DNA from: a virus
Lineage: Duplodnaviria; Heunggongvirae; Uroviricota; Caudoviricetes
Virus record (IMG/VR): IMGVR_UViG_2711768033_000004
Length of the DNA: 22,162 bases
Reading direction: 5' to 3' (one strand)
In this document: piece by piece, positions 2,947 through 22,162 of the stretch
Position numbering within the stretch: position 1 is the stretch's first letter
Layout: each line of letters starts with the position of its first letter
The notes under the pieces: model-generated
The model's input: the letters and a program-made list of their open reading frames with translations, nothing else
The model's database searches: none
What the model was told of the DNA's origin: nothing
Position numbers and translations under genes: made by a program

Positions 2947-3450
2947 CCTTGCATGAATTACGTTGTATTTGCATTATGCCAGAACTGGTGAATTATTAAA
3001 CATTTCGCGAGCTGTGCCCCGCTGTTACACAGAACGTTGTTAGCAATGTCCGCAGTTCGCTCAAAGCTACCTTCCAGTTTAACTGGGTATTGGTTGCATT
3101 TTTGTTAGAGATATCCAAGTAAAATGCGAATGGGTAGCCAAGTCAATGCAAATTCCCAAATGGACGACTAAACGCGTTTGAATGCCTGTGTATGTTGTTG
3201 TAGTAACATCCTTTCAACCTAACCGTGCAGGCCTGACAACGTCCGTAACAAGAAGTAGAAATATTGCTCAAAAGGCAAGATAGGCGGGAGCTAAAAGGTA
3301 ACACGTGCTGTTAGCATACCCTTGCATTGAGCCACAAACAATCTCACTGGACTTGCCACAATTTTGCCACACCTACAACGCGCAAAATTGCACATTAGTG
3401 TTAAACAAAGCAAAACACTGCAATAGTAACTTGATGATTTTACGAGAAAA

Positions 3451-3470
3451 GATGGTGCCGATAATAGGAG
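3451..3470. repeat. att-site direct repeat (gatggtgccgataataggag); 18 nt are the complement of the tRNA-Thr 3' end
   Basis: 20/20 identity with 16112-16131. It includes the complement of ...CTCCTATTATCGGCACCA, the acceptor 3' strand plus CCA. Confidence 0.6.
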
Positions 3471-3571
3471 CAAAACATGCACATAACAAACTGAAAAACA
3501 AGAAAATAATAATTTATTTAAAATGATATGCCCCCATACATGCCCCACAATTTAGTTCCATTTACAGCTCT

Positions 3572-3681
3572 GGAAGCATGGGAAGCATGGGAAGCATGGG
3601 AAGCATGGGAAGCATGGGAAGCATGGGAAGCATGGGAAGCATGGGAAGCATGGGAAGCATGGGAAGCATGGGAAGCATGGG
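3572..3681. repeat. perfect tandem repeat, 9-bp unit GGAAGCATG x 12 (plus 2 nt)
   Basis: Counted directly in the sequence: twelve identical consecutive units with no degenerate copies. No stop codon in any frame on either strand. Confidence 0.95.
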
Positions 3682-3951
3682 CGTAGGTGTGGCCAGTTTC
3701 TCAACATCAGGTGTGTAAGCACCACAAGCTGTTCTGGTTAAGCTATAAACAGCTAGCAACTACTCTCAACTGAACCTGAAAGCTCCTTCTCCTGCTTAAC
3801 AGGATCGGATCTTAAGCAAATTTATTAACTTAAGTTTAAGCAATTAAGCCGATTTCAGATCCAGCGAAATCGTATTACTGCCAACGCAAAAACACATCAA
3901 CAATAATAACGTAAGTATTTTGAAACTGACCACAGTTATATTTCTATCAGA

Positions 3952-5970
3952 TTAATAACTTTCTTTCAATTCTTTTTTCTCAATCATCTTTACAAGATCT
4001 AACTCATCCCACTTGACAAACCAATAAGTTTTGAGCATAGATTGCAGATCGCTCTCAATTTCCAAATGGCTTCTATTCACATTTTTCTCATATTTTTTGA
4101 GATATTTTCTGTACAAAAATCGTCTTGTCTCAATTGAAACAAATGGGCAAGACATAACATCCAAGAATAAATGTGCCTTTTCCGATGATTGTAATAAATC
4201 CATATCAGGATATAGCAAATCTTTAATTCTAACCTCAACAATATGTTTAAGTTCTTGATAAGGTTTTCTATTTCTAAAATAGAATAATAATGAGATTATT
4301 GTAAAGTAATCCAATTTCTTTTTATGTATAATACCATTAAAGAAAGAAGTGCTTACAAGATAATTACCCCCAAAAAAAGTAGCAGCTAATATCAAATTAA
4401 CTTTCTCTATGGAAATAAACCCATCAATAAAAAGACCATTGTCATTTTCACCAAAATTGATATTTTCAGCAGTATCTATTAATGTTGTCATAAAAATACT
4501 GCTATAATCACTTGAAAGCATTTTCAAATAATCATTAACGATAACCATTGTTTTTGATAATTTATATGAAGATGACACAGTTGGGTTAACACTGAAGAAA
4601 AACAACATTATATCAGTTACTAAAAATATAATATCTTTAATATTCTTACGTATTTCAACATCACCTTTAATCTTTTCCACCGGAAAGAAATCAATAATTA
4701 ATATTAATCTTTTTGATAATGAAGATATCAGATACGAGGAAATATCCGTGTAAGAAACCTTGTTATCAACACATATAGACTTGATATTATTTATCATATT
4801 CACTTTTAAATCATGCTTGCTTCTAATCTTATTTAGAAAAATGTCACCATCAATCCTTTTATATAATTTACCTTCAAGATTCCGCACTAGTTCGTTAACT
4901 TTAATGATCAATCCTGTCTTGCTAGTGCAGAATGGCCTAGAATATTTTTTAAGTTTATTGATATTTAACTGAAGATTAAAATCATTTAGCTTCACGTTAA
5001 TGGTTTTAGTGATAAGTTCAGCATTTGCTTCATTGTTGCAAAACACTATAAAATCATCCACATACCTTAATATCACATAGTCCTCGTGATTAACCCACCC
5101 GTATTCATCAAAAAGATTTGATTCAATACTACAATCGATACGCTGGAATATTAACTCAGCAAAGACCCGACTAAATTCTGAGCCTATAGGTATACCATTA
5201 GTTTCATTATTATTACTACGTTGCATCAACGTATCTAGTTCCTGACCAAATTGATTGCTATATTTCACATGTTTTCTGATGTAAGGTTTATTTTTTAAAG
5301 CCCATGAAATAGAATGAGTATATATACTATCAAAACAATGTGATACATCTAACATCCACATTATTGAGAATCTTTTCTCAAGATCAAAAAACATTTTACT
5401 TTGAAATAACTTATATATCCTATTAAATCCGCCATAAGAAAAATAAGATGATGAATACTTCCTCATTAATTCATCATTTGTTGTTTCAATATCCTCTCCT
5501 TTATATTTCTCTGAGGCATTATTTTCATATAAGAAGAATGAGTTTGCGACCTTTCGAGGATATCTTATAGAGTAATTACTTTTTGACGCATTTAATGTTA
5601 TAACAGTTGAGTAATTTTTATAAAACTCACAATAATTAAGTTGCGATCTGGGATGAATTAAAGAAAGATATCTTAAACTAAAAGCATCCTTGACAATGCA
5701 ATAGCCAAACGGAAAGCTTTGTTTCTTCTTTTCTTTTTCTCGTTCTTCTATTTTTATAGACAAATCAAAAGCAGGATTAATAATTTTCTTTACGAATGAA
5801 GAAAGGGGAGAGAAATACAAAATCTCCTTATAATGATTTTCAAACTCGGTCAGGTTCAAATACAATCCATCATTTGAAAAGATGATGGGACAGTCACCTG
5901 GTTGCGTATCACATAGTAAAGCCCTGAGGTAATCCTTCTTATCAAGTTTTACATTTTTCTTTATAGCCAT
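3952..5970 (-). CDS. reverse transcriptase with a long C-terminal extension (672 aa); second gene of the RT pair, UG/Abi-type, DRT3-like
   Basis: RT motif A WMLDVSHCFDSI, motif B GIPIGSEFSRVFAELIF, motif C LRYVDDFIVFC. About 350 aa of helical-looking sequence follow motif C. The start overlaps the upstream RT gene by 10 nt. Confidence 0.85.
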   Translation of the reverse strand: MAIKKNVKLDKKDYLRALLCDTQPGDCPIIFSNDGLYLNLTEFENHYKEILYFSPLSSFVKKIINPAFDLSIKIEEREKEKKKQSFPFGYCIVKDAFSLRYLSLIHPRSQLNYCEFYKNYSTVITLNASKSNYSIRYPRKVANSFFLYENNASEKYKGEDIETTNDELMRKYSSSYFSYGGFNRIYKLFQSKMFFDLEKRFSIMWMLDVSHCFDSIYTHSISWALKNKPYIRKHVKYSNQFGQELDTLMQRSNNNETNGIPIGSEFSRVFAELIFQRIDCSIESNLFDEYGWVNHEDYVILRYVDDFIVFCNNEANAELITKTINVKLNDFNLQLNINKLKKYSRPFCTSKTGLIIKVNELVRNLEGKLYKRIDGDIFLNKIRSKHDLKVNMINNIKSICVDNKVSYTDISSYLISSLSKRLILIIDFFPVEKIKGDVEIRKNIKDIIFLVTDIMLFFFSVNPTVSSSYKLSKTMVIVNDYLKMLSSDYSSIFMTTLIDTAENINFGENDNGLFIDGFISIEKVNLILAATFFGGNYLVSTSFFNGIIHKKKLDYFTIISLLFYFRNRKPYQELKHIVEVRIKDLLYPDMDLLQSSEKAHLFLDVMSCPFVSIETRRFLYRKYLKKYEKNVNRSHLEIESDLQSMLKTYWFVKWDELDLVKMIEKKELKESY

Positions 5971-7238
5971 ATTTTTGTGATCTCAGTGTAACGTTTGAAA
6001 TTGTACTTCCTATAAACTCTATCAACAAAACCTTTTCTAAAACTATTGCGCAATAACTCCTTTCTTTGGTTTACAGTGAAGGAATGTTTCGCAATACTAT
6101 GCAAACGTCCGTTGTTCGATTTAACACAATATAATAAAAAATCATCTAATTGCTTTAAGGATATAGAATTTACATCCAATCTTGCATTACTATAATAAAT
6201 TCCAGTACTAACCTTACCTTTCTCTAATGAACTTAATGATCTAATCTTCCTATTTAAATCTCTATTGCTTGTTAAAAAAGAAATTCTATCTAATAACAAT
6301 TTAAAATCACCAGTTCTATGGTAGGAGTAGAAAGCTCTTGCTATTCTAGTTTTAATTTTTTTTATGCGTCCACGAGATAAATCTACAGTTACTTTTCTAT
6401 ATACACTTAAAGTAGCACCTTTGTTACTTAGAGGAGAATCTATTACAGAAAAAGAGTAACCTAAAAAATCAAATTTATGGAGTAATTTATCTTTACCTGC
6501 CGTGCCTTTGCTTCTTTTGTCGATAAGTGGGGACACCTTCAACTTATTTGTATTTAAACTTAATCCCTTGGGTAACAAACTTTGTATTTGTTTCATTAAA
6601 GTCGATGGGCATTCATTTCCACTTGAAATGATCACCATATCATCTACAAAGCGAGAGTAATAAAACACTTCTGAATGCCGATGAATACTACTATCAAATG
6701 CTGCCAAATATAGCTCAGATAACATAGGACTAATCTCCAGTCCTCTTGGCAAACCTTTTGATGAATGGATTCTTTCACAAGCTTTAAGATACCATTCTAT
6801 CAAATTTTTAGTATGTCTGGATAAACGCCGTTCATCTTGCAAATATTGAAAGAGCTGAGGCAAATCGATAGATTCAAAAAAAGATTTTATATCTAAGCGA
6901 TACACTCGGAATTGTGCACCTTCTTTGAGATAAATTTTAAGCTCATCAATTATTTTATTTCTTTGTTTGGGTAGAAGTGACTCCAAACATTTTAAGTTTG
7001 CATTACAATGTCTAAGTATTAGTTTTTCTTTTAAACAAGATGCGTTGTAAACACAACGTCCTTTGATATTTATTTTCTTTACAGTTACTCCAGAACGAAA
7101 ATTTTCGCTGGCAATTAAAACAGCATCACTGATTAATGATTCTAATTTATCCACATTGTTTTTATTAAAATAAAAACTCTTCTCACTTTCACTCAAGTTA
7201 CGCTTAAGTGCTGATGAAGTAAATGGCTGCCGGTTCAT
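5961..7238 (-). CDS. reverse transcriptase (about 425 aa); first gene of the RT pair
   Basis: Motif A YRLDIKSFFESI, motif B GLPRGLEISPMLSELYL, motif C YSRFVDDMVIIS, LGYSF motif. The ORF track extends to 7322 with a non-ATG start, but ATG at 7238 is preceded by GAGGGGGG, so I prefer that start. Confidence 0.85.
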   Translation of the reverse strand: MNRQPFTSSALKRNLSESEKSFYFNKNNVDKLESLISDAVLIASENFRSGVTVKKINIKGRCVYNASCLKEKLILRHCNANLKCLESLLPKQRNKIIDELKIYLKEGAQFRVYRLDIKSFFESIDLPQLFQYLQDERRLSRHTKNLIEWYLKACERIHSSKGLPRGLEISPMLSELYLAAFDSSIHRHSEVFYYSRFVDDMVIISSGNECPSTLMKQIQSLLPKGLSLNTNKLKVSPLIDKRSKGTAGKDKLLHKFDFLGYSFSVIDSPLSNKGATLSVYRKVTVDLSRGRIKKIKTRIARAFYSYHRTGDFKLLLDRISFLTSNRDLNRKIRSLSSLEKGKVSTGIYYSNARLDVNSISLKQLDDFLLYCVKSNNGRLHSIAKHSFTVNQRKELLRNSFRKGFVDRVYRKYNFKRYTEITKIWL

Positions 7239-7637
7239 AACCCCCCTCACAGTACTATCCTTTATGCTTTTATAACTCTTTACATCGTTGCGCGCAATCG
7301 CATCCTCGCTACACTTGACCACTTAATGTAATAGTTTCAGTCACCTGCATGAAATTGTGTAGGCCACGCTGACAAGTTGGCGGCTCGCTGGTCCCCACCG
7401 CATAATATGGGCATCATCCCTAACAATACTGGCGGTTTTAGCGATATGGGAAGATCCAGACTCTTATTTGTTCACATTTAATTGATATCTCTGCAGGTGC
7501 GAAGAAAAGATGATCAACATCGAACCATACGATTTAGGATACCAAAAAGTAGCGAATCTCCCCCAGCAACACTTACATCTATTGAAACTGACTGAGTTTC
7601 GCGAATTGCGCCAGAATTGACCATTTAGCCCTACCAC

Positions 7638-7656
7638 GTGCGCAGCCCCGCCCGCC
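7638..7656. other. cos-like sequence (candidate P2/P4-type cohesive end site)
   Basis: The reverse complement GGCGGGCGGGGCTGCGCAC resembles the P2/P4 cohesive end GGCGAGGCGGGGAAAGCAC as I recall it, and it sits immediately downstream of the Delta-like gene where cos is expected. The match is approximate. Confidence 0.3.
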
Positions 7657-7856
7657 TACCCATTTCGCTTAACAGAATGGTTTTCATGCACCCCGTAAAT
7701 CGTCTCAGGAACCGCAACACAAGGGCTTTCGCGTCAAAATTGGTGCATGGAACTCATGCGTTTTCATGCGCCATAGACATGCACTCATACGTCCTCAAGC
7801 CAGCCAAGAAAAGGCGTAAAAATCCCGGCTCAGGACCGGGAGTATGTAGGGGAGAA

Positions 7857-8129
7857 TCAGACAGGGATTTGTTGGCGGCTGGAAAGCTTGGATGCAGAGC
7901 CATAGCGATTCAGTGTCTGCCCTTTTTTGTCTGTAGCCTCCTCTACTGTCTGCGTATTCTCTTCTTTCTGCGGGCGGGTGATAATGGTATGCACTGATTC
8001 AAGCGCCGTAAAAGTGCTTGAACATTCCAGATTCTGGCACTGGTAGTACGTTTTCTTTACAGAGGGGGCTTCGTACACACTGGCTCGACAATGTGCAATG
8101 GCTGAACAGAAAGGACATTTCAATGCCAT
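7857..8129 (-). CDS. Ogr/Delta-family zinc-finger late transcription activator (90 aa)
   Basis: CPFC...YYQCQNLECSSTF matches the Ogr/Delta Cys4 zinc-finger pattern. GGAGGG lies 8 nt upstream. The start overlaps the upstream gene's stop (TGATG). Confidence 0.8.
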   Translation of the reverse strand: MALKCPFCSAIAHCRASVYEAPSVKKTYYQCQNLECSSTFTALESVHTIITRPQKEENTQTVEEATDKKGQTLNRYGSASKLSSRQQIPV

Positions 8130-8890
8130 CAGATACCCTCCGCAGCTCGGTTACGTTTTTGTAGTTCCTCACGTTCCTGCCGGATCTTCATTTTATGAAG
8201 GGCTGCCGGAGAAGGAATTTTGCGGAAATCAGCAAGAGCTGCATAATCCGGGGCAACTCCCGCCAGTTTAAACACCGGGTCCTGTTCAGGCATCGCATCG
8301 TTAGCCAGAGCCGGTCTGGTGATATGTTTATGAATAAAGTCTTTCAGCACTGTGTCCGGGTCATTAACTGAATTCACCACACCCACAACAGCACTGGCTT
8401 CCCGGCCCATTGTTGATTTAAGCAGGCTCAGCGTCTGAATAAGCGCTTTTCCATGCGACTGCATGAAGTCTTCCCAGATTTGCTTTGCGCGAATTTCCAC
8501 AAGGGTGTTATGTGCGCTGATATACTGCCCGGCTAATTTCCCGGCTTCCTGCGGTAATAATGCATTTTCGCTTTCCTGAGCAGTCAGCAGCTCATCAAAA
8601 TCCTCAAGCGTTTCACGCCCCAGCGCAATTTCCGTACGCAGTTTTTTCATTTCCTTTGAGACTACGCCCTGACTTTCACGAAACAGCGTGCGCCACTCCT
8701 CATTCAGCGCGTTAGTCGTGGCTTCCATTTCAGCGCGGCGCTGGCGGATTGTCGCAATATTATCCGCTGCCGCTTTCTGCTGACGACGTGCTTCAAGCCA
8801 TGCGTTTCTGGCTGTGTTCATGGTTTCCAGTGCCCGCTGCGTTACAGCCGGAAAAGAGGAAAGATTGTTATTCACTGCGGTGTTGTTCAT
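8129..8890 (-). CDS. putative Sid-like capsid size-determination / scaffold protein (253 aa)
   Basis: Long ORF translationally coupled to the Delta-like gene, sitting in the position of P4 sid and of similar size. The product call is positional inference only. Confidence 0.4.
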   Translation of the reverse strand: MNNTAVNNNLSSFPAVTQRALETMNTARNAWLEARRQQKAAADNIATIRQRRAEMEATTNALNEEWRTLFRESQGVVSKEMKKLRTEIALGRETLEDFDELLTAQESENALLPQEAGKLAGQYISAHNTLVEIRAKQIWEDFMQSHGKALIQTLSLLKSTMGREASAVVGVVNSVNDPDTVLKDFIHKHITRPALANDAMPEQDPVFKLAGVAPDYAALADFRKIPSPAALHKMKIRQEREELQKRNRAAEGI

Positions 8891-9068
8891 GACTTCTCCT
8901 GTCGGGTTGATTCGTTACGTAAATTGTGTCGTGGCTGACACAAGCACACTATCGGTGCTCAGTGTATGGTGGCTGGCACAACGCGCGATTGCGGTTATTC
9001 AGACGTGGCTATGAAAGCCAGCCAGATAAAAATGCCCTCTGTTTCAGTCTGCTGTATGTCCCTTATGC

Positions 9069-9256
9069 GGTGGAACAGGTGAAACATGTGTTACTGCTTT
9101 GTTTTGTAAAGCATTTATATGCACTGCACCGGTGGAACATCGCGGGTAACAAGGTGGAACAGCGGATTGGCTGGCGTTACATCTGTTCCACCTCACTATT
9201 TCAGAAGGTGGAACAGGTTCAGCCCTGTAAAATACGGTTGTTCCACCTGTTTCACC
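9069..9256. repeat. iteron cluster: about 8 copies of GGTG(G/A)AACA in both orientations (candidate replication origin, crr-like)
   Basis: Copies at 9069, 9078, 9131, 9153 and 9207 on the + strand, and inverted at 9184, 9239 and 9248, immediately downstream of the primase gene. P4 ori/crr carry comparable TGTTCACC-type iterons bound by the alpha protein. Confidence 0.65.
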
Positions 9257-9290
9257 TGTTACCCTTAATAAATAAGACTCACGCAAAGCC

Positions 9291-11963
9291 TTAACCCGGC
9301 ACCTTGCTGTTGAAGACATAGAGCCTGCGGGGATTCATCTCTGGCGGGCGAATGGTTGTCTGGAGTTTGCCATCAGTGGAGGGGAGCAGGTATCCACGAT
9401 CTGCGCACAGACGCGCCACCTTGCGCGGGTCAAATCCCCTGCAGATTTCTTTCCAGCCGGACGGCATGACATAGAACGTAGTGACAGCTTCCGTGCCCTG
9501 CGCGGTACTGCCTTTCTCCACCCTGCGCCAGCCCACCATATTGCCGGGGCGGTTGCGCTCGTCATACCAGTCTGCAAAGCGGCTGTACTGATTCGCGGTA
9601 AAGAAACTGCGAACCTGCTCCAGTGCGGCAATATCTTCCTGATTGGCGGTGTGCCCGCGATCTTTCAGCCATGCGTTCAGGCAGACGCGGGTTGCCCGCA
9701 GTGCTTCACCCTCAGGCCAGCCGGTGATACCCAGACGGGTTGCCAGTTCACCCGCCATCGCCACCAGTGCAAAGCGATTCACAGCCCGGCCCACCTGATT
9801 GCCTGCATCTTTCGGAGTCAGGGCGGCAGCATATTCCTTCATCAGCGATTTTGCCTGTGCCGTTAGTCCATTAAGATCAGCGGTCAGTACTTTCAGCCAC
9901 TCCCGGAACGGCGAACCGTAGTAGCAGGACGTGGCCCATTCAAGATGCTCTGCCAGAGCCTTGCCGCTGTCGAAGCCGTGCAGTTCCTCAAAAACGCCAA
10001 ATTTCCCGGAATCGCTGGGGATCTGGATCATCCTGACTTCCATCCCGGCAAAAGTACGCTCACCGGCCTTTGCCGCATGTTCGGTCAGAGACAACTCGCC
10101 AGTTGAAAAGAACAACAGGCGCCACTGCTTACGGGTACGCAGCTCACCGTCCGTACCGGCACGGCCCTTGCCCTGACCGTTTGCCAGCATGTAGGCGATA
10201 TTGCCTGCCTCGCGTCCGTCAACTTCCCGGATCTCATCAAGCATCATGGCGGCATCGTTGCGGCGGCTGGCGCATCCCTCCAGCGCGTTGCCGGTGGCCC
10301 GCCATGTCTGCCAGTAGTCAGGCCCGCCGCAGACGGAGGTTGCCGCTTTCATGGTGGTGGTCTTACCGTCTGTCGATTCCCCTTTGAGGTGGTAGCCGCC
10401 GCCGTCCATACCAACCAGCCGTAACAGTGGTGCAGCAAAGGCCAGGCTGACAGCAAATGCCACGCGGGAGTTGCCGGCACAGTAGCGGGATACGTTCTCC
10501 CGCCATTCCTCTGTTGTGCCCGACACGCGGAAATCACGCCCCTGCACGGAAGTGGTCTGGAGAATGACACCCTCTGCACCTTCACCGCTGACCTCATCCT
10601 GCAGGACGTAAACCTGACCATGCCAGCCAGTACGGCTGACGCAGGTCACGCGGCGTTCCGGTTTACACAGTGAGATATATTCCATCAGGCGTGCGCGTGC
10701 CTCGCCGGTGGTGCTGATATAAGACAGCCCGTTAACCAGCAGTACCCGGCGCAGTTCCTCACCACTGCCGCTCAGCATTTCCATCGGCATCGCCCAGCGG
10801 CGACGCTCACCCCACGTATCTTCCCATTCCAGCAGTCGTCCGAAGTTACCGCCATCGGCATCGCAGGTGATTGCCGTCACGCGCAGCGGGCTGCATATTT
10901 TGACGTTCTGGATCTCCGTCTCACCGTTGCGCTGTACCTGCTTTTCATACCAGAGATATTCCTGGGTAAGACGGAACCCGTGCGGCAGTTGCGTGCGGCC
11001 TTCCCCGCACAGTACCAGACCGTTGCGAAAGGCTTCACGGGCACGGGTAATACCGTGCTCCCGATGAAAGTCATTCCAGTCAGCCTTAATCTCTCCTGGT
11101 GGCAGCGTCATCCAGCCGCCAACAGCTTTTGCCGCCCGTTCAGCAAAGGCTCTGCCGGGATTCTCACCCCCGTCCTGAAAATCGTTATCACCGGCGATGA
11201 TAATTTTTACCTCAGGCCAGCGTGCCCGCAGCGACTGCGCCACATTGGGCAGGTTGCCCGCAGATATGGCAGCCACTACGCATCCGGCAGTGAGCTGGCT
11301 TACCGTCAGCGCCGTAGCGTAACCTTCGGTAATCACCACCTGTACCGGTGGTTCAGACGGTAACGGGATGAGCGACACAAACGCGCCTTTCATCGTGCTG
11401 CCGGGCAGTATGCTTTTTTCACCCGTCGGGGCGATAAGCTGTGCACCGGTTACGGCTCCGGTGTTGGTCGTGAGTGGTAACAGCAGGGAACCGGCAGGGA
11501 AATCCTTACCGCTGATATGCTGCACGCTTCCGGTCAGATAGGCCGGGTATCCGGCGAACCCTTTTTCTGTCAGATAGGCGCTTTCTCCCGTGTGGCTCTC
11601 TTTCATCAGCGCCGCCACGGTAAGACCCATGTCGCGTTTAGGGGCTTTTTGTCTGGCAGGCTTAACAGGCAGTTCCTGCACATCCGGCACATTAAGCACC
11701 TGCGCCACCTCCTGCGCAGCCTTTCTGACGCTGTAACCGGTTACGAGCTTAACCAGATCCAGACCATCACCATTGCCACACTGGCTGCAGATCCACGTCC
11801 CGCGCCCGTCAAGGTCATCAAGGCGAAAACGATCCTTGCCCCCACATTTCGGGCAGGGACCGTGCCTGCCGTTTTCAGGTACATCAATACGCAGCATCTG
11901 CAGAATAACGGGCCATTTCCCCCGTGCGGCGGCTGAAATCTGCGTAACCGTCTGTATTGTCAT
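9291..11963 (-). CDS. P4 alpha-like primase-helicase (890 aa): Zn-ribbon, TOPRIM, SF3-type P-loop
   Basis: N-terminal CPKCGG...CSQCGNGDG zinc ribbon; TOPRIM-like IIIAGDNDFQDGGE; Walker A GESTDGKTT. High G+C typical of the P4 backbone. Start overlaps the upstream gene (ATGA). Confidence 0.9.
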   Translation of the reverse strand: MTIQTVTQISAAARGKWPVILQMLRIDVPENGRHGPCPKCGGKDRFRLDDLDGRGTWICSQCGNGDGLDLVKLVTGYSVRKAAQEVAQVLNVPDVQELPVKPARQKAPKRDMGLTVAALMKESHTGESAYLTEKGFAGYPAYLTGSVQHISGKDFPAGSLLLPLTTNTGAVTGAQLIAPTGEKSILPGSTMKGAFVSLIPLPSEPPVQVVITEGYATALTVSQLTAGCVVAAISAGNLPNVAQSLRARWPEVKIIIAGDNDFQDGGENPGRAFAERAAKAVGGWMTLPPGEIKADWNDFHREHGITRAREAFRNGLVLCGEGRTQLPHGFRLTQEYLWYEKQVQRNGETEIQNVKICSPLRVTAITCDADGGNFGRLLEWEDTWGERRRWAMPMEMLSGSGEELRRVLLVNGLSYISTTGEARARLMEYISLCKPERRVTCVSRTGWHGQVYVLQDEVSGEGAEGVILQTTSVQGRDFRVSGTTEEWRENVSRYCAGNSRVAFAVSLAFAAPLLRLVGMDGGGYHLKGESTDGKTTTMKAATSVCGGPDYWQTWRATGNALEGCASRRNDAAMMLDEIREVDGREAGNIAYMLANGQGKGRAGTDGELRTRKQWRLLFFSTGELSLTEHAAKAGERTFAGMEVRMIQIPSDSGKFGVFEELHGFDSGKALAEHLEWATSCYYGSPFREWLKVLTADLNGLTAQAKSLMKEYAAALTPKDAGNQVGRAVNRFALVAMAGELATRLGITGWPEGEALRATRVCLNAWLKDRGHTANQEDIAALEQVRSFFTANQYSRFADWYDERNRPGNMVGWRRVEKGSTAQGTEAVTTFYVMPSGWKEICRGFDPRKVARLCADRGYLLPSTDGKLQTTIRPPEMNPRRLYVFNSKVPG

Positions 11964-12343
11964 ACTTCCCCCTCATACAACGTCACACCGGTACTGCAGA
12001 AGTCATCAAAGGCCGCCGGAAGCGTGCGGTACATCTCCGCCATCACTTCACAGCCGCGCGCGGTCAGTACCGGCGGTGCGGTCAGCAGTGACGGCTCCAG
12101 CATGTCAGTCAGCAGTGCCAGCGCGGCAGCGGCGCCCTGCACTTCGCCGTACTCGTTAATCAGTACGCACTCGATATGCAGCGCAATGGCCATTTCAATA
12201 CGCTCCACCGTCAGGCTGTGCGGACCATACTGATCACTGCCAGTTTCGTTCAGCATTTTCTGCCGCCATGCTGAAGCAATAGCTCGCCGGTAAAGCGCGG
12301 TGGTCATTTCTGCCGGGAAAATGGAAACCTGCGGCTGGTTCAT
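11960..12343 (-). CDS. hypothetical P4-like operon protein (127 aa)
   Basis: ORF in the primase operon with 4-nt overlaps to both neighbours. Confidence 0.55.
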   Translation of the reverse strand: MNQPQVSIFPAEMTTALYRRAIASAWRQKMLNETGSDQYGPHSLTVERIEMAIALHIECVLINEYGEVQGAAAALALLTDMLEPSLLTAPPVLTARGCEVMAEMYRTLPAAFDDFCSTGVTLYEGEV

Positions 12344-12624
12344 CTGGCACCTCCTTCAATCAGTGCGCAACTGTGTGCAATATCCGTCAAATCTGCCCGC
12401 AGGTACTCCATCAGCGCGGCGACACCATGCGCACAGCCAGCGTCCAGTGCTCCGGCCTGAGACGGGTATTCAGAAAAGAGAAGCTGGAGCATGTCGCAGG
12501 CATTTCTTGCGCGGGTCAGCTTTCCGAAACTGTCCTCTGACAACCCATAGGCAAAAGCACCGGTATTGTGTTTTTCAGGCAAAGTGTGGCCCTGAGCACC
12601 GTTGTGCCCGTTTGAAATATTCAT
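12340..12624 (-). CDS. hypothetical P4-like operon protein (94 aa)
   Basis: ORF in the operon; 4-nt overlap with the downstream gene. Confidence 0.55.
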   Translation of the reverse strand: MNISNGHNGAQGHTLPEKHNTGAFAYGLSEDSFGKLTRARNACDMLQLLFSEYPSQAGALDAGCAHGVAALMEYLRADLTDIAHSCALIEGGAR

Positions 12625-12655
12625 CGTGGATTACTCCGTTTTCAGCGGTATTTTG

Positions 12656-13015
12656 TCAGAGAAACTTTGAATAGTGACCGTCGTCAGGCTCAGCAGAACG
12701 CCATATGCTACGCTCCCGCCAGCGGATAAATAGCACAGACGGATGCAGTGTCAGCGGGCCGGAACCACTACCGCCTGCAGGAGCTGGTGCAGGCTTAAAG
12801 AGCGGTACATCAAACAGGCGCGTATACCGCTGTTCAAACCATGCCAGAGGGCAGGAAGAAAGCTGGTTGTCGCTGTCATGACGTATCAGCACTTCACAGC
12901 TGAATTCAGGATTAACCAGCGCCACAGAGGGCGAGGCTTCTATTAATCGGATAATCGTGACCGTCCAGCCACGTTCATGCTGCCAGCGTTCGCCGGGGTG
13001 CGGATAATTACGCAT
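12656..13015 (-). CDS. hypothetical protein (about 119 aa)
   Basis: ORF whose ATG at 13015 overlaps the stop of the upstream small gene (ATGCGTAA). The track's longer N-terminus (to 13045) is probably not used. Confidence 0.5.
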   Translation of the reverse strand: MRNYPHPGERWQHERGWTVTIIRLIEASPSVALVNPEFSCEVLIRHDSDNQLSSCPLAWFEQRYTRLFDVPLFKPAPAPAGGSGSGPLTLHPSVLFIRWRERSIWRSAEPDDGHYSKFL

Positions 13016-13185
13016 GTTCACCTCCGCAGGGAATGCGCCCGGCAAAGCTCAGTACATAGTCCGGGGCAAGTCTGCGCCGCGCTGACCGCTCGTTATCTGC
13101 GGTGATCCTTAACATCACAGGACGGGCATTGCGTTGACTGCGGTTGATCGCCGCAAATAACCAGGTACACTTCTGTTTAGCCATC
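13008..13185 (-). CDS. small protein (58 aa), possibly Icd-like; first gene of the primase operon
   Basis: Not in the ORF track because it is under 60 aa. Translation MAKQKCTWLFAAINRSQRNARPVMLRITADNERSARRRL... with AAGAGGT about 7 nt upstream of the ATG. The Icd-like call is from memory of a similar small family and is uncertain. Confidence 0.45.
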
Positions 13186-13275
13186 TTCGTTACCTCTTAT
13201 AACGGTTGGTTAAATGCCCGATTTGTGTTCCCGCACAATCGGGCATTGCTTTTACAAGCGAACTATACTTACAAT

Positions 13276-13319
13276 GGTAATTACCATGTAGTCATCATAT
13301 TCTAGGGTAATTACCATGT
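13276..13319. promoter_or_regulatory. two copies of GGTAATTACCATGT (perfect 10-bp palindrome GGTAATTACC plus ATGT), 30 bp apart; candidate operator pair
   Basis: Copies at 13276-13289 and 13306-13319. They sit in the divergent region between the primase operon and the RHH gene, and the second copy overlaps the RHH start codon. Confidence 0.5.
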
Positions 13320-13489
13320 CAACACCACAAGAGAAACGTTCTCCACCATTCCAAATGCGTCTTACCGACGATTTTAGGTTGCAACTCGAAAACGAAATGC
13401 GCAAAGATGGAGATAGCGCGTTGGCAACTTGGATTAAAAGAATTTTACGCAAAGAACTCCAATCACGCGGGATTGACCCTAAAGGCTAA
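13316..13489 (+). CDS. small ribbon-helix-helix (Arc/CopG-like) DNA-binding protein (57 aa)
   Basis: Not in the ORF track because it is under 60 aa. Translation MSTPQEKRSPPFQMRLTDDFRLQLENEMRKDGDSALATWIKRILRKELQSRGIDPKG has a strand-helix-helix pattern. Its start lies inside the operator repeat. Confidence 0.45.
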   Translation: MSTPQEKRSPPFQMRLTDDFRLQLENEMRKDGDSALATWIKRILRKELQSRGIDPKG

Positions 13490-13521
13490 TCAGTTAAATA
13501 TTACTAACTATCAATTAAGGC

Positions 13522-13812
13522 TTAGGGAGTAGGTGATAATCTATTCCCTTTATTAATTGCTCTTGCCTTATTTCTCATTCCCTCAAAATGTTGACCTGAG
13601 TTTTCTTCAAACCCATCTCGCCACTTATAATAATCAGCAGCGCGCCATCGTGACATCCGACCTATTTTTATAGGTTTTGGAAAGCGATTCAGAGAAATCA
13701 ATCGATAAATCCATTTATCACTTAATAAACAATCGGAAGTAATAAACTTCATATCGATCAGAGAATCCATTGAAGGTCGTTGCAAAGTAGTATTATCATG
13801 TTTAGATAACAT
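13522..13812 (-). CDS. AlpA-family phage transcriptional regulator / excisionase-like protein (96 aa)
   Basis: KWIYRLISLNRFPKPIKIGRMSRWRAADYYKWRD matches the AlpA pattern (...IYRLI...FPKPIKLG.R...W...EW). GGAG lies 8 nt before the ATG. Confidence 0.7.
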   Translation of the reverse strand: MLSKHDNTTLQRPSMDSLIDMKFITSDCLLSDKWIYRLISLNRFPKPIKIGRMSRWRAADYYKWRDGFEENSGQHFEGMRNKARAINKGNRLSPTP

Positions 13813-13937
13813 TCATCATTCTCCGTTTATCTAAGTCTATTGGCTTCAACACGGAAAATTAAAACATAGGTTATAAATGAGAAAAATGTGACTAATGAAA
13901 AAAATCCAAAATCATTAGCCACAATAATTGTTAATAT

Positions 13938-14762
13938 TTAGTTAAACTTAATGTTTTTCATGCAACTACGTAGCAAACTAACAACAGTATCATAGCTCAA
14001 AGGCGGTTCTCCGGTCTTAGGCCAGAACTCACTGGCATGTTGAAAAAGATAATCAGCTATCGCTGCTGGACTCTCTCTTCTTAGCCTCATATCACGATGA
14101 TAGAGCGAAATAATAGCCATGAGTATTTCAGCTCGAGGAACAGCATGTTTTTGTTTTTGCGCCTCAGATTGTGATTTATATTTATTGGCGTTTTTTATCC
14201 GCTTTTGTTCGCATAAGACTATATCAATGAATTTTTGAATCTGTACCTTTGTAATCCACAAAACCTCAAAAAGATAATAATTTTCTTTTTCATCATAATT
14301 TACATAAAGAATTACCTTACAATTTATATTAGGCGTACCCGCCAGTAGAAAATGAATAGGCCAGGAATCCGGTTGCCCCTCATGCTTAACTAACAGATCT
14401 TTATATTCATAATCAACAGCCCATAAACCGGATATGAAACATCGAATAAAACCATTTTTATCAATTAAATTATCTTCATCAGGGATTCTTATAGAACTTA
14501 AGTCTGACAACATAATATTGCCATTTCTATCTCGTGGTAAATATTTCAGATTAGATAAGAACTCATCCATTTGACCATCAATCTTCAAACCACATGAAAC
14601 ATCATACTCATCATCATGGAATTCCATGCATAGCTCTACATCTCGTTCTCTGGCAAACCAGAGTATATCCTTTTCACTACAACCAATTTTTTCTGAAGCT
14701 TCCTCCAACTGGTAGTAATCTCTGAGCAGAGAATCAGTATTATTAATTTTTAAAATATTCAT
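13938..14762 (-). CDS. hypothetical AT-rich protein (274 aa) with a possible N-terminal HTH, translationally coupled to the integrase
   Basis: Its ATG overlaps the integrase stop (ATGA). The N-terminal segment YQLEEASEKIGCSEKDILWFARE looks HTH-like. The rest has no recognisable motif. Confidence 0.7.
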   Translation of the reverse strand: MNILKINNTDSLLRDYYQLEEASEKIGCSEKDILWFARERDVELCMEFHDDEYDVSCGLKIDGQMDEFLSNLKYLPRDRNGNIMLSDLSSIRIPDEDNLIDKNGFIRCFISGLWAVDYEYKDLLVKHEGQPDSWPIHFLLAGTPNINCKVILYVNYDEKENYYLFEVLWITKVQIQKFIDIVLCEQKRIKNANKYKSQSEAQKQKHAVPRAEILMAIISLYHRDMRLRRESPAAIADYLFQHASEFWPKTGEPPLSYDTVVSLLRSCMKNIKFN

Positions 14763-15949
14763 TTATGAGTACCAATTAGCTCAGATAAATAATTAGCATA
14801 CCATTGCATCATTTCTCTTCTCCCTTCGAGATATTGGGCATGGTTATAAATTCCACGAATAGAGTTTTTGTCCGAATGAGCAAGCTGGGTTTCAATCCAA
14901 GCGCTGTTAAATCCTTTCTCATGTAGGATTGTACTCATCGTATGCCTGAAACCATGCCCCGTAACACGCCCTGCATATCCAATACGTTTAAACACCTGAT
15001 TAATGCTTGCTTCACTCATAAATTTGCTAGGATCGTTGCGTCCAGGGAACATCAGCGGGTAGTTCCCAGTTAGTTCTTTCAAACTTTTGAGATGGGATAA
15101 TGCTTGTTTTGACAACGGGACAATATGGCTCCTACGCATTTTCATACGTTCTTTTGGGATCTCCCACACCGCATTATCAAAATCCACCTCTCGCCACTCA
15201 CCTGCTCGTAGTTCTCCAGTTCGTAGACCTGTCAGGATAAGTAAATGCGCCCCCAACAATACAATTGGACTTCCTGAATAAGAATTAAGGGCATTAAAGA
15301 ACTCCGGTAGTTCGTTGGCTTTGAGGAATGGATAGTGGACTGCTTCATGTCCTTGCATCGCACTGGCAAGATCCGGTGCCGGATTGTAGATTGCCCTACC
15401 CGTTACGATGGCATAGCGAAAAACTTCACCGCATCGCTGACGGACTTTCTTCGCTTTCTCCATAGCGCCTCGAGTTTCTATCAACCTCAGAACTTCAAGC
15501 AGTTCAAGGGGCTGAATATCAGCTATAGGTCTGTGCCCAATATGCGGGAAAATGTCTTTCTCGAATGCCTCAATGATGTCGGAAGCATAGCCCTCAGACC
15601 ATTTGGGTGATTTCATTTTGTGCCACTCTAACGCCACTTCTCTGAATGGGTTAAGTGTCTCAATCGCTGCATTTAAAGCCTGCTTTTTGGCTTTTTTGAC
15701 TTCGCCGGGATCTTCACCTGCTGCGAGTAGTTTCTTCGCGTCTTCTCGTTTTTGTCTGGCATCAGCAAGTGTGACTGTTGGATAAACACCAAAGGACAAT
15801 CGTTTCTCTTTACCAGCAAAACGGTATTTCATACGCCAGTAACGCGAGCCATTAGGTTCGACCTGAAGGTATAGGCCACCTCCATCAAACAGCTTGTAGC
15901 TCTTCTCTTTTCCTTTCGCAGCTTCAACCTTGCGGGCATTCAGCATCAT
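14759..15949 (-). CDS. P4-type tyrosine integrase
   Basis: Begins MMLNARKVEAAKGKEKSYKLFDGGGLYLQV, typical of a P4-family integrase N-terminus, with the catalytic region ...HGFRHT... It lies about 165 bp from the tRNA 3' fragment. The track's longer ORF starts at a TTG (16018); I prefer ATG 15949. Confidence 0.9.
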   Translation of the reverse strand: MMLNARKVEAAKGKEKSYKLFDGGGLYLQVEPNGSRYWRMKYRFAGKEKRLSFGVYPTVTLADARQKREDAKKLLAAGEDPGEVKKAKKQALNAAIETLNPFREVALEWHKMKSPKWSEGYASDIIEAFEKDIFPHIGHRPIADIQPLELLEVLRLIETRGAMEKAKKVRQRCGEVFRYAIVTGRAIYNPAPDLASAMQGHEAVHYPFLKANELPEFFNALNSYSGSPIVLLGAHLLILTGLRTGELRAGEWREVDFDNAVWEIPKERMKMRRSHIVPLSKQALSHLKSLKELTGNYPLMFPGRNDPSKFMSEASINQVFKRIGYAGRVTGHGFRHTMSTILHEKGFNSAWIETQLAHSDKNSIRGIYNHAQYLEGRREMMQWYANYLSELIGTHK

Positions 15950-16113
15950 TGGGGGCACATTTCCTAGACCGAACAGAACATGCCCCTGATTGTGCCCCCA
16001 ACCGCGTGTTGATTTCAAGAGACAAGGGTTGACCTCAAACGTATGAAAACAACGTAATATATATGTTTTTAAATGATTTTGTTGATGTGGGTTGACTTGG
16101 GAAAACTAGGTGA

Positions 16114-16159
16114 TGGTGCCGATAATAGGAGTCGAACCTACGACCTTCGCATTACGAAT
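16114..16159 (-). repeat. partial tRNA-Thr(CGU) (thrW-like) 3' portion, 46 nt from the anticodon loop to CCA; att remnant, not a functional tRNA
   Basis: The reverse complement reads ATTCGTAATGCGAAGGTCGTAGGTTCGACTCCTATTATCGGCACCA: anticodon CGT, T-loop TTCGACT, acceptor 3' strand and CCA. The sequence 5' of this does not match a tRNA, so no cloverleaf can form. Confidence 0.8.
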
Positions 16160-16549: not shown

Positions 16550-19500
16550 TTATCTCGTAAAATTAGTTTTATGACTTCCTGTTAGCTGACTGTCTTCATA
16601 ATAAAATGCCCCACTAAACTCCTGTCGACCATAATGATGACTTGATGTGAGTGAGCCCCCTATAACACCTTTTTCACCTAATAATGTCCAAACGATTTCA
16701 AAACCATTGTCCCTTAACATTGTTAAAAATGGTTCTTTTTTAACAAGTAGATGCGGCTTTGAAGCATATACAGCTTCAGCTGCAAAGCAAACCATAGTTC
16801 CATTTTCATCATTGAAGCTACCCTCTACTTCCCCATTTTTTAAGCCCATCTTTTCAAAGATTAAGTTGCTAGGCTTCAAAAAATTCAAAGCTTCTATTTT
16901 TGATTTGTCGAACTCCTCTCCCCACAAATAATTAATCGAAGTGACACTAACATCAGCTATCTTAGCTCCAGACTCCCGGTCTGTTACCGAAGTCCAGTCA
17001 GAACCACCATAATAATCTGATTTAAAAGACTTAAATGCTTCGGACCAATAGTACTCCCTATTAAATAATTGGTATCTATCAGTACATTCCGGCATCCACC
17101 TGCCCATAAAGTCTTGAGCTATTGCCCAACATCTAAAATTTTCAAATTCTTGAACTTTAACGATATAACTTCTGATCTGATACCAAACCTCTTTTCGTGG
17201 GTGCCCCCAATCATCGTTTCCAATAATTTTTGGTTCTTTCCATGATGGATAACTTTCTAATACTATCCATTCATCACCATTATCATCTTTAACTTCAATC
17301 AAAGCATATGGATTAGTTATAGTAGTAGAGCTTTTAACCCAGTCTTCATTAGAGCAAGTCCAATCAAACACTTCATCATTAAGCCACCACATTTCTTTAT
17401 TGCTTATTTTTTTCGTCCCAGTTTCTTTAAGTAAGATAGTGGGATCTATATCTCTTACGTAAGGCTCCCATGGCCCTTGGTATGGGTTTTCCTTTCGGTC
17501 GTCACCATAACCTTCAAAACGAATAAAATTATCGGCTAGCCTTGCCATGTATTCATAATAAGCAATCCATTGGTATTTTTTACCAATCCGTTCTTGGAAT
17601 TCCTCTCTACGTCCACGTCCAGTTCCTATTTGTTGATCAAAATCACCATGCTTCTCCGGATCCCAACCAAGTTCCAGAACACGATTGAATATAAATTGTT
17701 GAGCTAGTCGAAGATCAAAGTGTTTATCAGTTTCCAGCAGATTATTATTATGATCTAGGTATGGCTCTATTTCATTTTCAAACTCACTTAACAGATCGTA
17801 TGACAATGAATTCTTAAATAGCTTCTTGCTCGCCTTTATTTCTTCCTGTGCTTTTCTACCGACCACGCTACCAAATTTAATTCCTTCACATTTATCATCA
17901 TAAATGAAAGGATCTGTAGCATCATACAATTTTTTTTGTTGGTCAGTTAGTTTACATTTGAAAGTTTTAAAAATTTTCTTACGGTCAATAGGAGTTTCAT
18001 TAAACTTGCAACCAGACCAATCAGAATGATTGTAATTTGTTCCAATGGTATATCGTGAAAAGTCACCACCTCCCATAATCGAGCTCCAGAGTGCCCGATA
18101 AGGTTCTTTATTATAAAGAGACTCTAGTTCCTCTTTTGGAGGAATCTCGTCAGGCCAAATGCTGTTGTAGGGTGGCCTAGTCTTGGATAATTCAATACTT
18201 TCAAGTTCCAGTCCAAGATGATTAGCAAATTCAATAATCTCTCTCGCATAATCTCTAAGTAATATATTTGGATACACAGACTCAGAACAAAATACCTTTT
18301 GGTAAACAGTTTCGGCTAAATATTTTAGTTCTTTAATATTATCAGTTCGCAATGTACAACCCAATGCAACTGCAAATATTCTTTCCCAAACGTAAGGATC
18401 ATTTACACCATAAAACTTATCAATTATTTTTCTCAATACAGGAATTCTTGGCTCGAGTAAACTCACTAAAGCCTTGGTTGAGCAATCTCGAAGTTCTCGG
18501 TTACTAGAAGTTAAAAACCAGCATAAACTAGTTGCAACTAGCTCGATTGACTCATCCGAAACGAAGCTTTTATCTGTTCTGCCCCATGCCCAATCGATTA
18601 GATGCCTAAATGCTGAGTCTTCACTATATTTATATTTAAGTTTTGTAGTCCAACACGAATCTCGATTTCCCAAAGAGTAATCTTTTAGCCAATCATGCAA
18701 GAAATTAGCATTAAAGGGATGGTCAACTAAACCTGAAATAGAGATCACTGCCTCGAGAAAATGATCAAAACTACCTTTAAATTTAAAAACATGTTCATTG
18801 ATGAAAGGTCTGATTTTTTCGAAATCAATAGCCTTAATATCTCGCCATATCAAGCTATCAATAAAGGCTTCTAGTAATTTATGATTATTGCTGAACTCCG
18901 GCAGAAATTCATAAAGCTCTTTTCCATACTTTTCTGGCAATTGAATAGAAAGCGCCTCAACTATTCCCGAGTTTGTATAAAAATCACATTCATCATGAAA
19001 ATATTTTTTCAGACGACCATCTGACTTAAATTCATTTTCGATATTTTCAACATCATTTAATAAAAAATTAACGGTTAAATGATCATCAAACCTTTCAAAA
19101 GCCACATGAACTACTTCCTCAGTAGCATTATCATTATTTCTCACTATGCCTTTAGTCAATAATCCTTCGTCAATCAAGGCGCTGAGGAAATTTTTATCTG
19201 TAACATAATCATTAACTACAGATTGAACCACTGAGTGAGCATCTCTAAGTGAAATACTATTACTACCAATCTCTAATTTGAATTTTATGATTTCGTTGAG
19301 AGCATCTTTTACAAGAGGAAAACTGGGATCGAAATCATATTTTTTTGGCGATGCCAATGATTTATTCACCCCTTCCACTAAAAAGTTAAAAATATTTGAA
19401 ATCCCATTAAACCCAACAGGTACTTTGGTTAAACCATTTTTCTTAATGCCTTCACACAATAACTTAAGAAATAGAGGGTTTTTAAACTCTGGATTAAGAT

Positions 19501-21526: not shown

Positions 21527-22081
21527 TCATTTATCTCCGACCGGAAACTTCTTATACAGTGTCGATACTCCAACATCATAGATGATCGCCACCTTCTGGC
21601 GAGGAACGCCTGATGCAATTAATCGCCCGGCCTGCGCCCATTGTTCTGGTGTAAGTTTGGGACGACGTCCACCAATTCGTCCCTGTGCGCGAGCAACTTC
21701 CAGTCCAGCTTTTGTTCGTTCAACAATCAGTTCTCGTTCCATTTCAGCCAGGGCACCCATCACATGAAAGAAAAAACGCCCCATCGGTGTGCTGGTATCA
21801 ATAGCATCCGTCAGGCTGCGAAAATTAACGCCACGTTCGCGCAACTCCTCAACCAGAATGACCAGATGCCGCATACTACGCCCCAGCCGATCCAGCTTCC
21901 AGACAACCAGAGTGTCACCTGCCGATAATGTCCTGAGCAGTTTTTTCAGTCCCGGCCTTTCGGACTTTGTACCGCTTATCTTGTCTTCAAAAATCAGCTC
22001 GCATCCTGCACAGTTCAGCGCATTACGTTGTAGATCTGTGTTCTGGTCATTTGTTGACACACGTACATAGCCAATAAGCAT
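21527..22081 (-). CDS. Pin/Hin/Gin-family serine DNA invertase (about 184 aa)
   Basis: MLIGYVRVSTNDQNTDLQRNAL... with catalytic-serine motif YVRVSTNDQ, then ...LVVWKLDRLGRSM...MGRFFFHVMGALAEMERELIVERT... and a C-terminal HTH. GGAG lies before the ATG at 22081. The 12 extra N-terminal codons in the track are probably not translated. Confidence 0.9.
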   Translation of the reverse strand: MLIGYVRVSTNDQNTDLQRNALNCAGCELIFEDKISGTKSERPGLKKLLRTLSAGDTLVVWKLDRLGRSMRHLVILVEELRERGVNFRSLTDAIDTSTPMGRFFFHVMGALAEMERELIVERTKAGLEVARAQGRIGGRRPKLTPEQWAQAGRLIASGVPRQKVAIIYDVGVSTLYKKFPVGDK

Positions 22082-22162
22082 GGTAGATCTCCCTGGCAAA
22101 AGCAGGAATGATGCCATTTGCTCGTTATTTCTGCATTTTCATAAACGTTGGTTTGGGAGAAG

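Follow-up and report, generated by a model that had tools for sequence, protein, structure and literature searches.

The minus strand at positions 3952–7238 carries drt3a and drt3b, which, together with a putative ncRNA downstream, most likely constitute a complete and probably functional DRT type 3 (DRT3) system, an anti-phage cargo occupying the hotspot beside cos in an integrated P4-like satellite (probability roughly 0.92, judged from sequence comparisons). The window, meaning the whole 22,162-nt stretch of viral DNA analysed here, was already the subject of an earlier note, which had proposed two overlapping reverse transcriptase (RT) genes of DRT type 3 character. DRT type 3 was reportedly described by Gao et al. 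in 2020.

ORF listing and translations recovered both genes on the minus strand, with all of the RT motifs that had been read from them. The gene drt3a (5961–7238, minus strand) encodes a 425-aa class 2 RT of the UG3 group with YRLDIKSFF, GLPRGLEISP and RFVDD, while drt3b (3952–5970, minus strand) encodes a 672-aa class 1 RT of the UG8 group with MLDVSHCFDSI, GIPIGSEFS and RYVDD, followed by an alpha-repeat domain and a C-terminal tail ending in Tyr672. The C-terminal extension of the second RT amounts to ~330 residues beyond the RT domain, close to the ~350 aa first estimated, and the gene overlap is, as proposed, exactly 10 nt (ATGGCTATAA, 5961–5970). The full ORF of drt3a opens with a GTG and spans 5961–7322; the internal ATG at 7238, which yields the 425-aa product, is preceded by GAGGGGGG and is also the start used by RefSeq.

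Both proteins are members of the Drt3a and Drt3b families. The upstream RT scores 362 bits against NCBIfam NF041747 (cut-off 200) and matches the PADLOC Drt3a profile at E 9e-131, and the downstream RT matches NF041748 end to end with 606 bits (cut-off 350) and the PADLOC Drt3b profile at E 4e-200; profiles thus assign the former to Drt3a/UG3 and the latter to Drt3b/UG8. Proteins 100% identical to both are named drt3a and drt3b by PGAP in RefSeq E. coli genomes, where they lie in the same P4-like satellite. Drt3a also matches PDB 9z6y_A ("Drt3a reverse transcriptase protein") over its full length (E 3e-55), as Drt3b does 9z6y_H (residues 1–672, E 4e-111). We take PDB 9z6y/9z6z, a DRT3 complex solved by cryo-EM, to be that of Deng et al. 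2026; its Drt3b shares the ...KxxY C-terminus with the protein here but is another orthologue, of 650 rather than 672 aa. As summarised in PMC13314766, Deng et al. 2026 describe a 6:6:6 Drt3a:Drt3b:ncRNA assembly.

Alternatively, two one-gene systems with no relation to each other, or a mobile retroelement, could by chance be neighbours here; candidates are UG17/DRT10 with DRT4/AbiK, retrons and group II introns. The first RT does match RT_UG17 at 100 bits, the second matches Drt6, AbiP2 and Drt4 at 120–140 bits, and both match group II intron and retron models. However, the Drt3a and Drt3b profiles score 3–5 times higher and pass their curated cut-offs, whereas in the profile comparison suggested by the earlier note the group II intron RT/maturase model TIGR04416 (cut-off 300; 78 and 46 bits for the two RTs) and the retron St85 model NF038233 (cut-off 235; 52 bits) fell far short. 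Rfam found no intron or retron RNA in the whole window or in 3300–7900. The 10-nt overlap and the co-occurrence of the two genes in 94 loci likewise argue against a chance pairing: drt3a is directly upstream of drt3b on one strand here, and Drt3a adjoins Drt3b in the 94 loci fetched. The closest non-DRT3 profile of Drt3a is RT_UG17. DRT10 (UG17) and DRT9 have in common with DRT3 a class 2 UG RT and a short ncRNA template beside a boundary stem that gives rise to tandem-repeat DNA. DRT10 differs in pairing with a SLATT effector and DRT9 in acting alone, and neither is accompanied by a further RT of the protein-templated kind; a SLATT gene is absent from this locus. We therefore give next to no credence to two unrelated elements and retain a DRT3 pair.

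A close known relative is EcoDRT3 of E. coli ECOR12, whose mechanism was described by Wang, Yoneyama et al. in 2026 (PMC13174585). The system here matches it in composition and gene order (drt3a, then drt3b, then a downstream ncRNA), but its proteins are only 32% (Drt3a) and 35% (Drt3b) identical to their EcoDRT3 counterparts. Across that distance, alignment indicates that the catalytic residues of both RTs and the priming and gating residues of Drt3b are retained, with a single exception. In the translation of Drt3a the motif A Asp and motif C are intact, the latter reading FVDD rather than the YVDD of EcoDRT3, a naturally occurring form seen in 39 of the 94 loci. Drt3b has an intact LDVSHCF and YVDD; the residues corresponding to E22, R71, D182, F187 and R241 of EcoDRT3b are D26, R100, D208, F213 and R268, and YVDD corresponds to Y303–D306. 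The C-terminal Tyr, on which EcoDRT3b is primed, is also conserved (Y672 here, Y666 in EcoDRT3b). The sole substitution among the priming and gating residues is therefore the conservative E-to-D change at the gate, which is invariant within the clade; an E22D mutant of EcoDRT3b has only partial activity (PMC13174585).

Two regions, the 3' flank of drt3b (3682–3951) and the leader of drt3a (7239–7636), had been put forward as candidate sites for an ncRNA, and fold, core, covariation and HMM evidence all point to the former. The 3' flank folds well (MFE z = -6.0) and is conserved along with the genes in 78%-identical loci, where the alignment stops at 3686. A conserved, covarying RNA element of ~245 nt, predicted to be structured and containing an invariant ACACAC, lies at 3686–3933 on the minus strand. 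From its 5' end it comprises the first strand of closing stem P1 (3933–3922), stem-loops SL1 (3911–3871), SL2 (3870–3852), SL3 (3850–3839), SL4 (3834–3811) and SL5 (3810–3782), a template-adjacent stem-loop, SL-T (3765–3717), an invariant 19-nt core, CUUACACACCUGAUGUUGA (3719–3701), and the 3' strand of P1 (3700–3689). Within the core, the putative template ACACAC (3711–3716, minus strand) would lie in single-stranded RNA, with SL-T on one side and the P1 3' strand on the other, the same topology as in EcoDRT3, for which its role as template has been demonstrated (PMC13174585). A GUUGAGA motif flanks the template module on both sides.

The 12-bp closing stem P1 is 98% paired in 16 homologues, half of its positions (6 of 12) show compensatory changes, and covariation was also seen in SL1, SL2 and SL3. 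Because MAFFT misaligned the variable hairpins, pairs were recounted on segments that had been anchored and then aligned inwards, starting at the base of each hairpin; separate counting with count_structure_pairs confirmed the well-aligned helices, with 91% paired against 32–45% when the partner was slid, and 0 of 500 shuffles reaching the observed value. The 19-nt core including ACACAC is invariant in 16/16 homologues, and the ACACAC has no other minus-strand copy near the operon; of 76 related loci, 70 have an ACACAC no more than 450 nt past drt3b. Collection-wide, eight of the nine matches to a 20-nt core pattern lie directly downstream of a drt3b, and nhmmer with the ncRNA HMM gave one match in the window (E 4e-74). 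A duplex-energy test of the closing stem across 70 loci was noisy, with support mainly where the template lies >100 nt from the stop codon, and the distant loci with a template 30–60 nt from the stop suggest a different RNA layout. In the consensus fold that RNAalifold derived from the MAFFT alignments, the template region pairs with UCAG repeats upstream of it, a structure that was rejected since the partner sequence is absent in short-form homologues and shows no covariation. A promoter-like match within the ncRNA (3932–3903) was likewise discounted, as the conserved 5' strand of P1 would be lost. In Rfam searches, the whole window had no match at the gathering score and 3300–7900 had none at E <= 1; Rfam 15 has no DRT3 RNA family.

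Placement of the ncRNA in the leader instead, upstream of drt3a, would have precedent in the ncRNAs reported upstream of the RT in Terrabacteria UG8 groups (Mestre et al.) and in DRT2, and the leader is long (~400 nt). Yet its predicted fold is no more stable than those of its shuffled versions (z = +0.8), and it contains no minus-strand ACACAC and gives no match to the ncRNA HMM, and it is not conserved among relatives past the promoter-proximal ~66 nt; it also includes a stretch similar to P2-like DNA from near cos, since 7359–7510, close to the cos-like site, resemble the region around gene Q in Fels-2, a P2-like phage. A leader-encoded ncRNA is thus highly improbable, and the 3' flank remains our assignment. 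The one leader segment conserved among relatives (7241–7297, minus strand) contains a promoter-like TTGCGC (7297–7292), a 17-nt spacer, TATAAA (7274–7269) and the RBS GAGGGGGG (7248–7241), and homology upstream of drt3a with the 78%-identical loci stops at 7304. We infer that this segment includes the operon promoter, its match to the sigma-70 consensus being weak (8/12, under the scan threshold).

The P4-like setting proposed for the genes also held up. A perfect 20-nt direct repeat, GATGGTGCCGATAATAGGAG, brackets the element, with the cargo-side att copy at 3451–3470 and its partner adjoining the integrase at 16112–16131, and Pfam domains between the two identify the integrase, a Toprim/DUF927 primase-helicase, Psu and Ogr/Delta. 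The 12.7-kb element (window 3452–16159) has a 99.9% identical copy with matching boundaries in a complete E. coli genome, and RefSeq annotates an identical satellite element. The RT genes are, as had been noted, more AT-rich than the satellite backbone (GC 27–34% in 4001–7000 versus 49–61% in 7501–13000). Bordering the hotspot is a G-rich sequence, GGTAGGCGGGCGGGGCTGCGCAC (7638–7660, minus strand), read by eye. Used as an approximate query, what we take to be the P2/P4 cos 19-mer, GGCGAGGCGGGGAAAGCAC, had no match in the window at up to 3 mismatches, so we call the site only cos-like; near versions of GGCGAGGCGGGGAAAGCAC occur in relatives L088–L090.

If the system works as EcoDRT3 does (PMC13174585; Deng et al. 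2026, as summarised in PMC13314766), the promoter ~35 nt upstream of drt3a would drive the operon, and the 3' flank would yield the folded ncRNA. Drt3a would bind this RNA and copy ACACAC repeatedly into poly(dTdG), with SL-T, which immediately precedes the template on its 5' side, serving as the template boundary. Drt3b, as a hexamer primed on its C-terminal Tyr672, would synthesize poly(dCdA) without a nucleic-acid template (protein-primed and protein-templated), D26 and R268 acting as its nucleotide gates. The two products may then anneal into a poly(GT/AC) duplex that RecBCD normally clears; upon inhibition of RecBCD by a phage, for example by lambda Gam, the duplex would build up and trigger abortive infection. 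The RNAs themselves differ: at ~245 nt, the ncRNA here exceeds the 161 nt of its EcoDRT3 counterpart by ~85 nt, its stem-loops are more numerous and it does not end in a terminator hairpin, and no sequence similarity between the two was found beyond the template, the HMM of this clade's RNA missing the EcoDRT3 ncRNA.

The locus could also be a decayed or silenced remnant, in which intact genes no longer make up a working system, for instance through a promoter or ncRNA 3' end broken by the adjacent tandem repeat or by recombination close to cos. Consistent with this, no terminator hairpin follows the ncRNA, a hypervariable 9-bp repeat begins 7 nt past P1, the promoter matches at only 8/12 positions, and a degenerate cos-like relic abuts it. 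Against it, both ORFs are full length with every catalytic residue present, an identical Drt3b is found on 217 contigs, and the RNA core is invariant, with covarying stems, in relatives down to 50% protein identity. Since an invariant core and covarying stems imply ongoing selection, we regard a dead remnant as very unlikely and favor a probably functional DRT3 system.

The copy number of this 9-bp repeat beside the closing stem differs between near-identical strains, with 2 to 18 copies seen. Conceivably, though improbably, the clade-specific ncRNA has regulatory features absent from the EcoDRT3 RNA, with the repeat setting the 3' end or stability of the RNA and so tuning or phase-varying defence. 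If so, the repeat would adjust how much is made of a defence system that, in the absence of clearance by RecBCD, yields a toxic product.

The DRT3 system at 3952–7238 is already known, because UG3+UG8 pairs in P4-like satellite hotspots and a "CACACA" ncRNA motif were reported in 2022 (Mestre et al., PMC9226505; Rousset et al., PMC9122126). Like those systems, this one sits next to cos in the variable part of a P4-like element and has the same conserved CA-repeat motif downstream of UG8, at a distance that varies; it does not differ in kind and is one more instance. With the genes already named drt3a and drt3b in RefSeq and the mechanism published in 2026, the locus carries little weight as a discovery. 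What is added are exact coordinates and a covariation-backed outline of an ncRNA (3686–3933) that is annotated in no database, from a DRT3 clade ~32–35% identical to the studied one. The layout of an ACACAC template and closing stem appears to hold across that distance, and the natural Asp at the dATP gate of Drt3b, together with FVDD in Drt3a, could inform structure–function work on DRT3.

Profile scans with PADLOC, NCBIfam and Pfam identify the upstream reverse transcriptase (RT) as Drt3a (UG3) and the downstream RT as Drt3b (UG8), which bears out the DRT type 3 reading proposed in the earlier note and answers the question, left there, of which protein is which. The upstream RT scored 362 bits on the NCBIfam Drt3a profile NF041747 (cut-off 200) and E 9e-131 on PADLOC Drt3a, while the downstream RT matched the Drt3b profile NF041748 end to end with 606 bits (cut-off 350); the runner-up profiles, RT_UG17 for the former and Drt6, AbiP2 and Drt4 for the latter, scored far lower. 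Both proteins also matched the chains named Drt3a and Drt3b in PDB 9z6y (E 3e-55 and 4e-111, respectively). A group II intron or retron identity was rejected, as both RT models missed their cut-offs by a wide margin. By megablast, complete E. coli genomes contain the same 4.3 kb, 99.6-99.9% identical, and in them PGAP already labels the genes drt3a and drt3b (WP_053292704, WP_044789697) and their neighbours include Ogr/Delta, Psu and a Toprim-DUF927 protein; a Drt3b identical to that of the window is found in 217 contigs. For DRT3, the gene family, its location in satellites, the RNA motif and the mechanism are all already known.

Both genes lie on the minus strand, drt3a at 5961-7238 (425 aa) and drt3b at 3952-5970 (672 aa). 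The drt3a reading frame extends back to a GTG at 7322; the ATG at 7238, which is RefSeq's start for the identical gene, is preceded by a ribosome-binding site, GAGGGGGG. All the RT motifs noticed on first reading were found in the translated ORFs, the two genes do share 10 nt (ATGGCTATAA), and they are AT-rich as had been claimed, with a GC content of 27-34% versus 49-61% for the adjacent backbone.

Published work places the DRT3 ncRNA downstream of drt3b, with a loop that holds a conserved ACACAC template (PMC13174585; PMC9226505). The earlier note had offered both the leader (7239-7636) and the 3' flank (3682-3951) as candidates, and it is the 3' flank that forms the predicted ncRNA, judging from motif, conservation, layout, covariation, fold and specificity. 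The sole minus-strand ACACAC near the operon is at 3716-3711, 236 nt past the drt3b stop. A Drt3b alignment was used to retrieve 80 loci; the flank could be read in 76, of which 70 contain ACACAC no more than 450 nt beyond the stop, against a chance expectation of about 10% (our own estimate from motif length). In loci with 78%-identical genes, the alignment to the window spans 7304 to 3686, indicating that the 3' flank is conserved along with the genes, whereas the leader is conserved solely in a promoter-like TTGCGC-17-TATAAA and a ribosome-binding site. Folding likewise separates the two regions, with z = -6.0 for the flank and z = +0.8, no better than background, for the leader.

An invariant 19-nt core, CUUACACACCUGAUGUUGA, and a stem arrangement are common to the 3' flanks of 16 relatives whose Drt3b identity is 50-99%. 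Across these homologues, 98% of cells in the 12-bp closing stem (3933-3922 with 3700-3689) are paired, versus only 22-44% in a shifted register, and 6 of its 12 positions show compensatory changes; stem-loops SL1, SL2 and SL3 also covary. When MAFFT aligns the sequences without regard to structure, pairing in the five well-aligned helices is 91% versus 32-45% when slid, and the covariation score is 0.31 versus 0.05-0.11; the observed value was reached in 0 of 500 shuffles. The template is predicted to be unpaired. Immediately 5' of it is the GCUU end of the template-adjacent stem-loop SL-T (3765-3717), and on its other side is the closing stem's 3' strand. An HMM built from the RNA has a single match in the window (3941-3681, E 4e-74), and a 20-nt core pattern gave nine matches in viral and metagenome collections, eight of them directly downstream of a drt3b.

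Several further features of this region were observed. The ncRNA (minus strand) has two copies of GUUGAGA(G/A), one just 5' of SL-T at 3770-3763 and one just 3' of the template at 3705-3699; each copy runs into a helix strand and both are kept in 16/16 homologues. One locus with 67% Drt3b identity (L087, 4017-4233) has a second ACACAC in the SL4 loop besides the conserved template. A perfect 9-bp tandem repeat of 12.2 copies (3572-3681; GGAAGCATG on the plus strand, CAUGCUUCC in the ncRNA sense) begins 7 nt past the closing stem, and a PGAP hypothetical protein spanning it is probably spurious. Near-identical elements have 18 (NZ_CM163380), 11 (NZ_CP169399), about 8 (NZ_CM136166) and 2 (a metagenome contig) copies, and relatives at 88-91% identity are without the array.

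The satellite is a 12.7-kb element that encodes an integrase, a primase-helicase, Psu and Delta and is flanked by a perfect 20-nt direct repeat (3451-3470 and 16112-16131), which we take to resemble the 3' end of tRNA-Thr. NZ_CM163380 carries this element (window 3452-16159) at 99.9% identity, next to an intact tRNA-Thr. Since ARAGORN found no tRNA genes in the window, the satellite here seems to adjoin another inserted segment, comprising Avs2 and a resolvase, rather than a tRNA directly. The proposed cargo-slot position holds: the DRT3 module has a G-rich cos-like sequence (7638-7660) on one side and the cargo-side att repeat on the other, which is the hotspot that Rousset et al. describe (PMC9122126), and UG3+UG8 is among the P4 hotspot contents listed by Mestre et al. 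(PMC9226505). In relatives at about 50-60% identity (L088-L090), a near-consensus P2/P4-type cos, GGCGAGGCGGGGATAGCA, directly adjoins the drt3a promoter; in the window, the copy at this spot (~7285-7310) is degenerate and lies some 350 nt from the separate G-rich sequence further upstream. This placement suggests that the DRT3 cassette moved between satellites via recombination at cos. At 7359-7510 the sequence is similar to the Q-gene region of Fels-2, a P2-like phage.

Just outside the integrase-side att repeat, a 1484-aa ORF (16550-21004) encodes the anti-phage protein Avs2 (AVAST type 2; PADLOC, 1751 bits), with a serine resolvase gene nearby (21527-22117); avs2 likewise adjoins a related DRT3 satellite in one E. 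coli genome (NZ_CP116188). On the other side are an IS1 transposase fragment (18-284) and a 459-aa FRG-domain protein (1567-2946) that matches PDC-S15, a candidate defence family (E 2e-97). With Avs2 and the FRG protein flanking the DRT3 satellite, the entire window is a defence island.

By homology to EcoDRT3, the system of E. coli ECOR12, Drt3a with the ncRNA would copy ACACAC into poly(dTdG), while a Drt3b hexamer, priming on its C-terminal Tyr, would alternate dA and dC via Glu22 and Arg241 (EcoDRT3b numbering) without a nucleic-acid template. The two product strands would form dsDNA that RecBCD limits, and lambda Gam would trigger abortive infection (PMC13174585; Deng et al. 2026, as summarised in PMC13314766). 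The window's Drt3b retains R100, D208, F213, R268, Y303VDD and the terminal Y672; Asp26, invariant in its clade, replaces Glu22; in EcoDRT3b the E22D change leaves the protein partially active, and it is often seen in homologues (PMC13174585). Motif C of Drt3a reads FVDD, a variant shared by 39 of 94 homologues.

The window's proteins are 32% (Drt3a) and 35% (Drt3b) identical to those of EcoDRT3, and its ncRNA is longer (~245 versus 161 nt), with no similarity beyond the template in an HMM comparison; the two RNAs have the same order of stem-loop, unpaired template and closing-stem 3' strand. No terminator was found after the window's ncRNA. Relatives at about 50% protein identity have a shorter RNA of about 175 nt without the long SL1 and SL-T extensions. 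In more distant loci, whose Drt3b shares less than about 31% identity with that of the window (L048, L053, L056, L058, L059, L062, L064-L066, L069, L071-L076 and L079-L081), only 30-60 nt separate the drt3b stop from ACACAC, often as part of a longer CA run, and no closing or enclosing stem was detected, which suggests a second ncRNA layout within DRT3.
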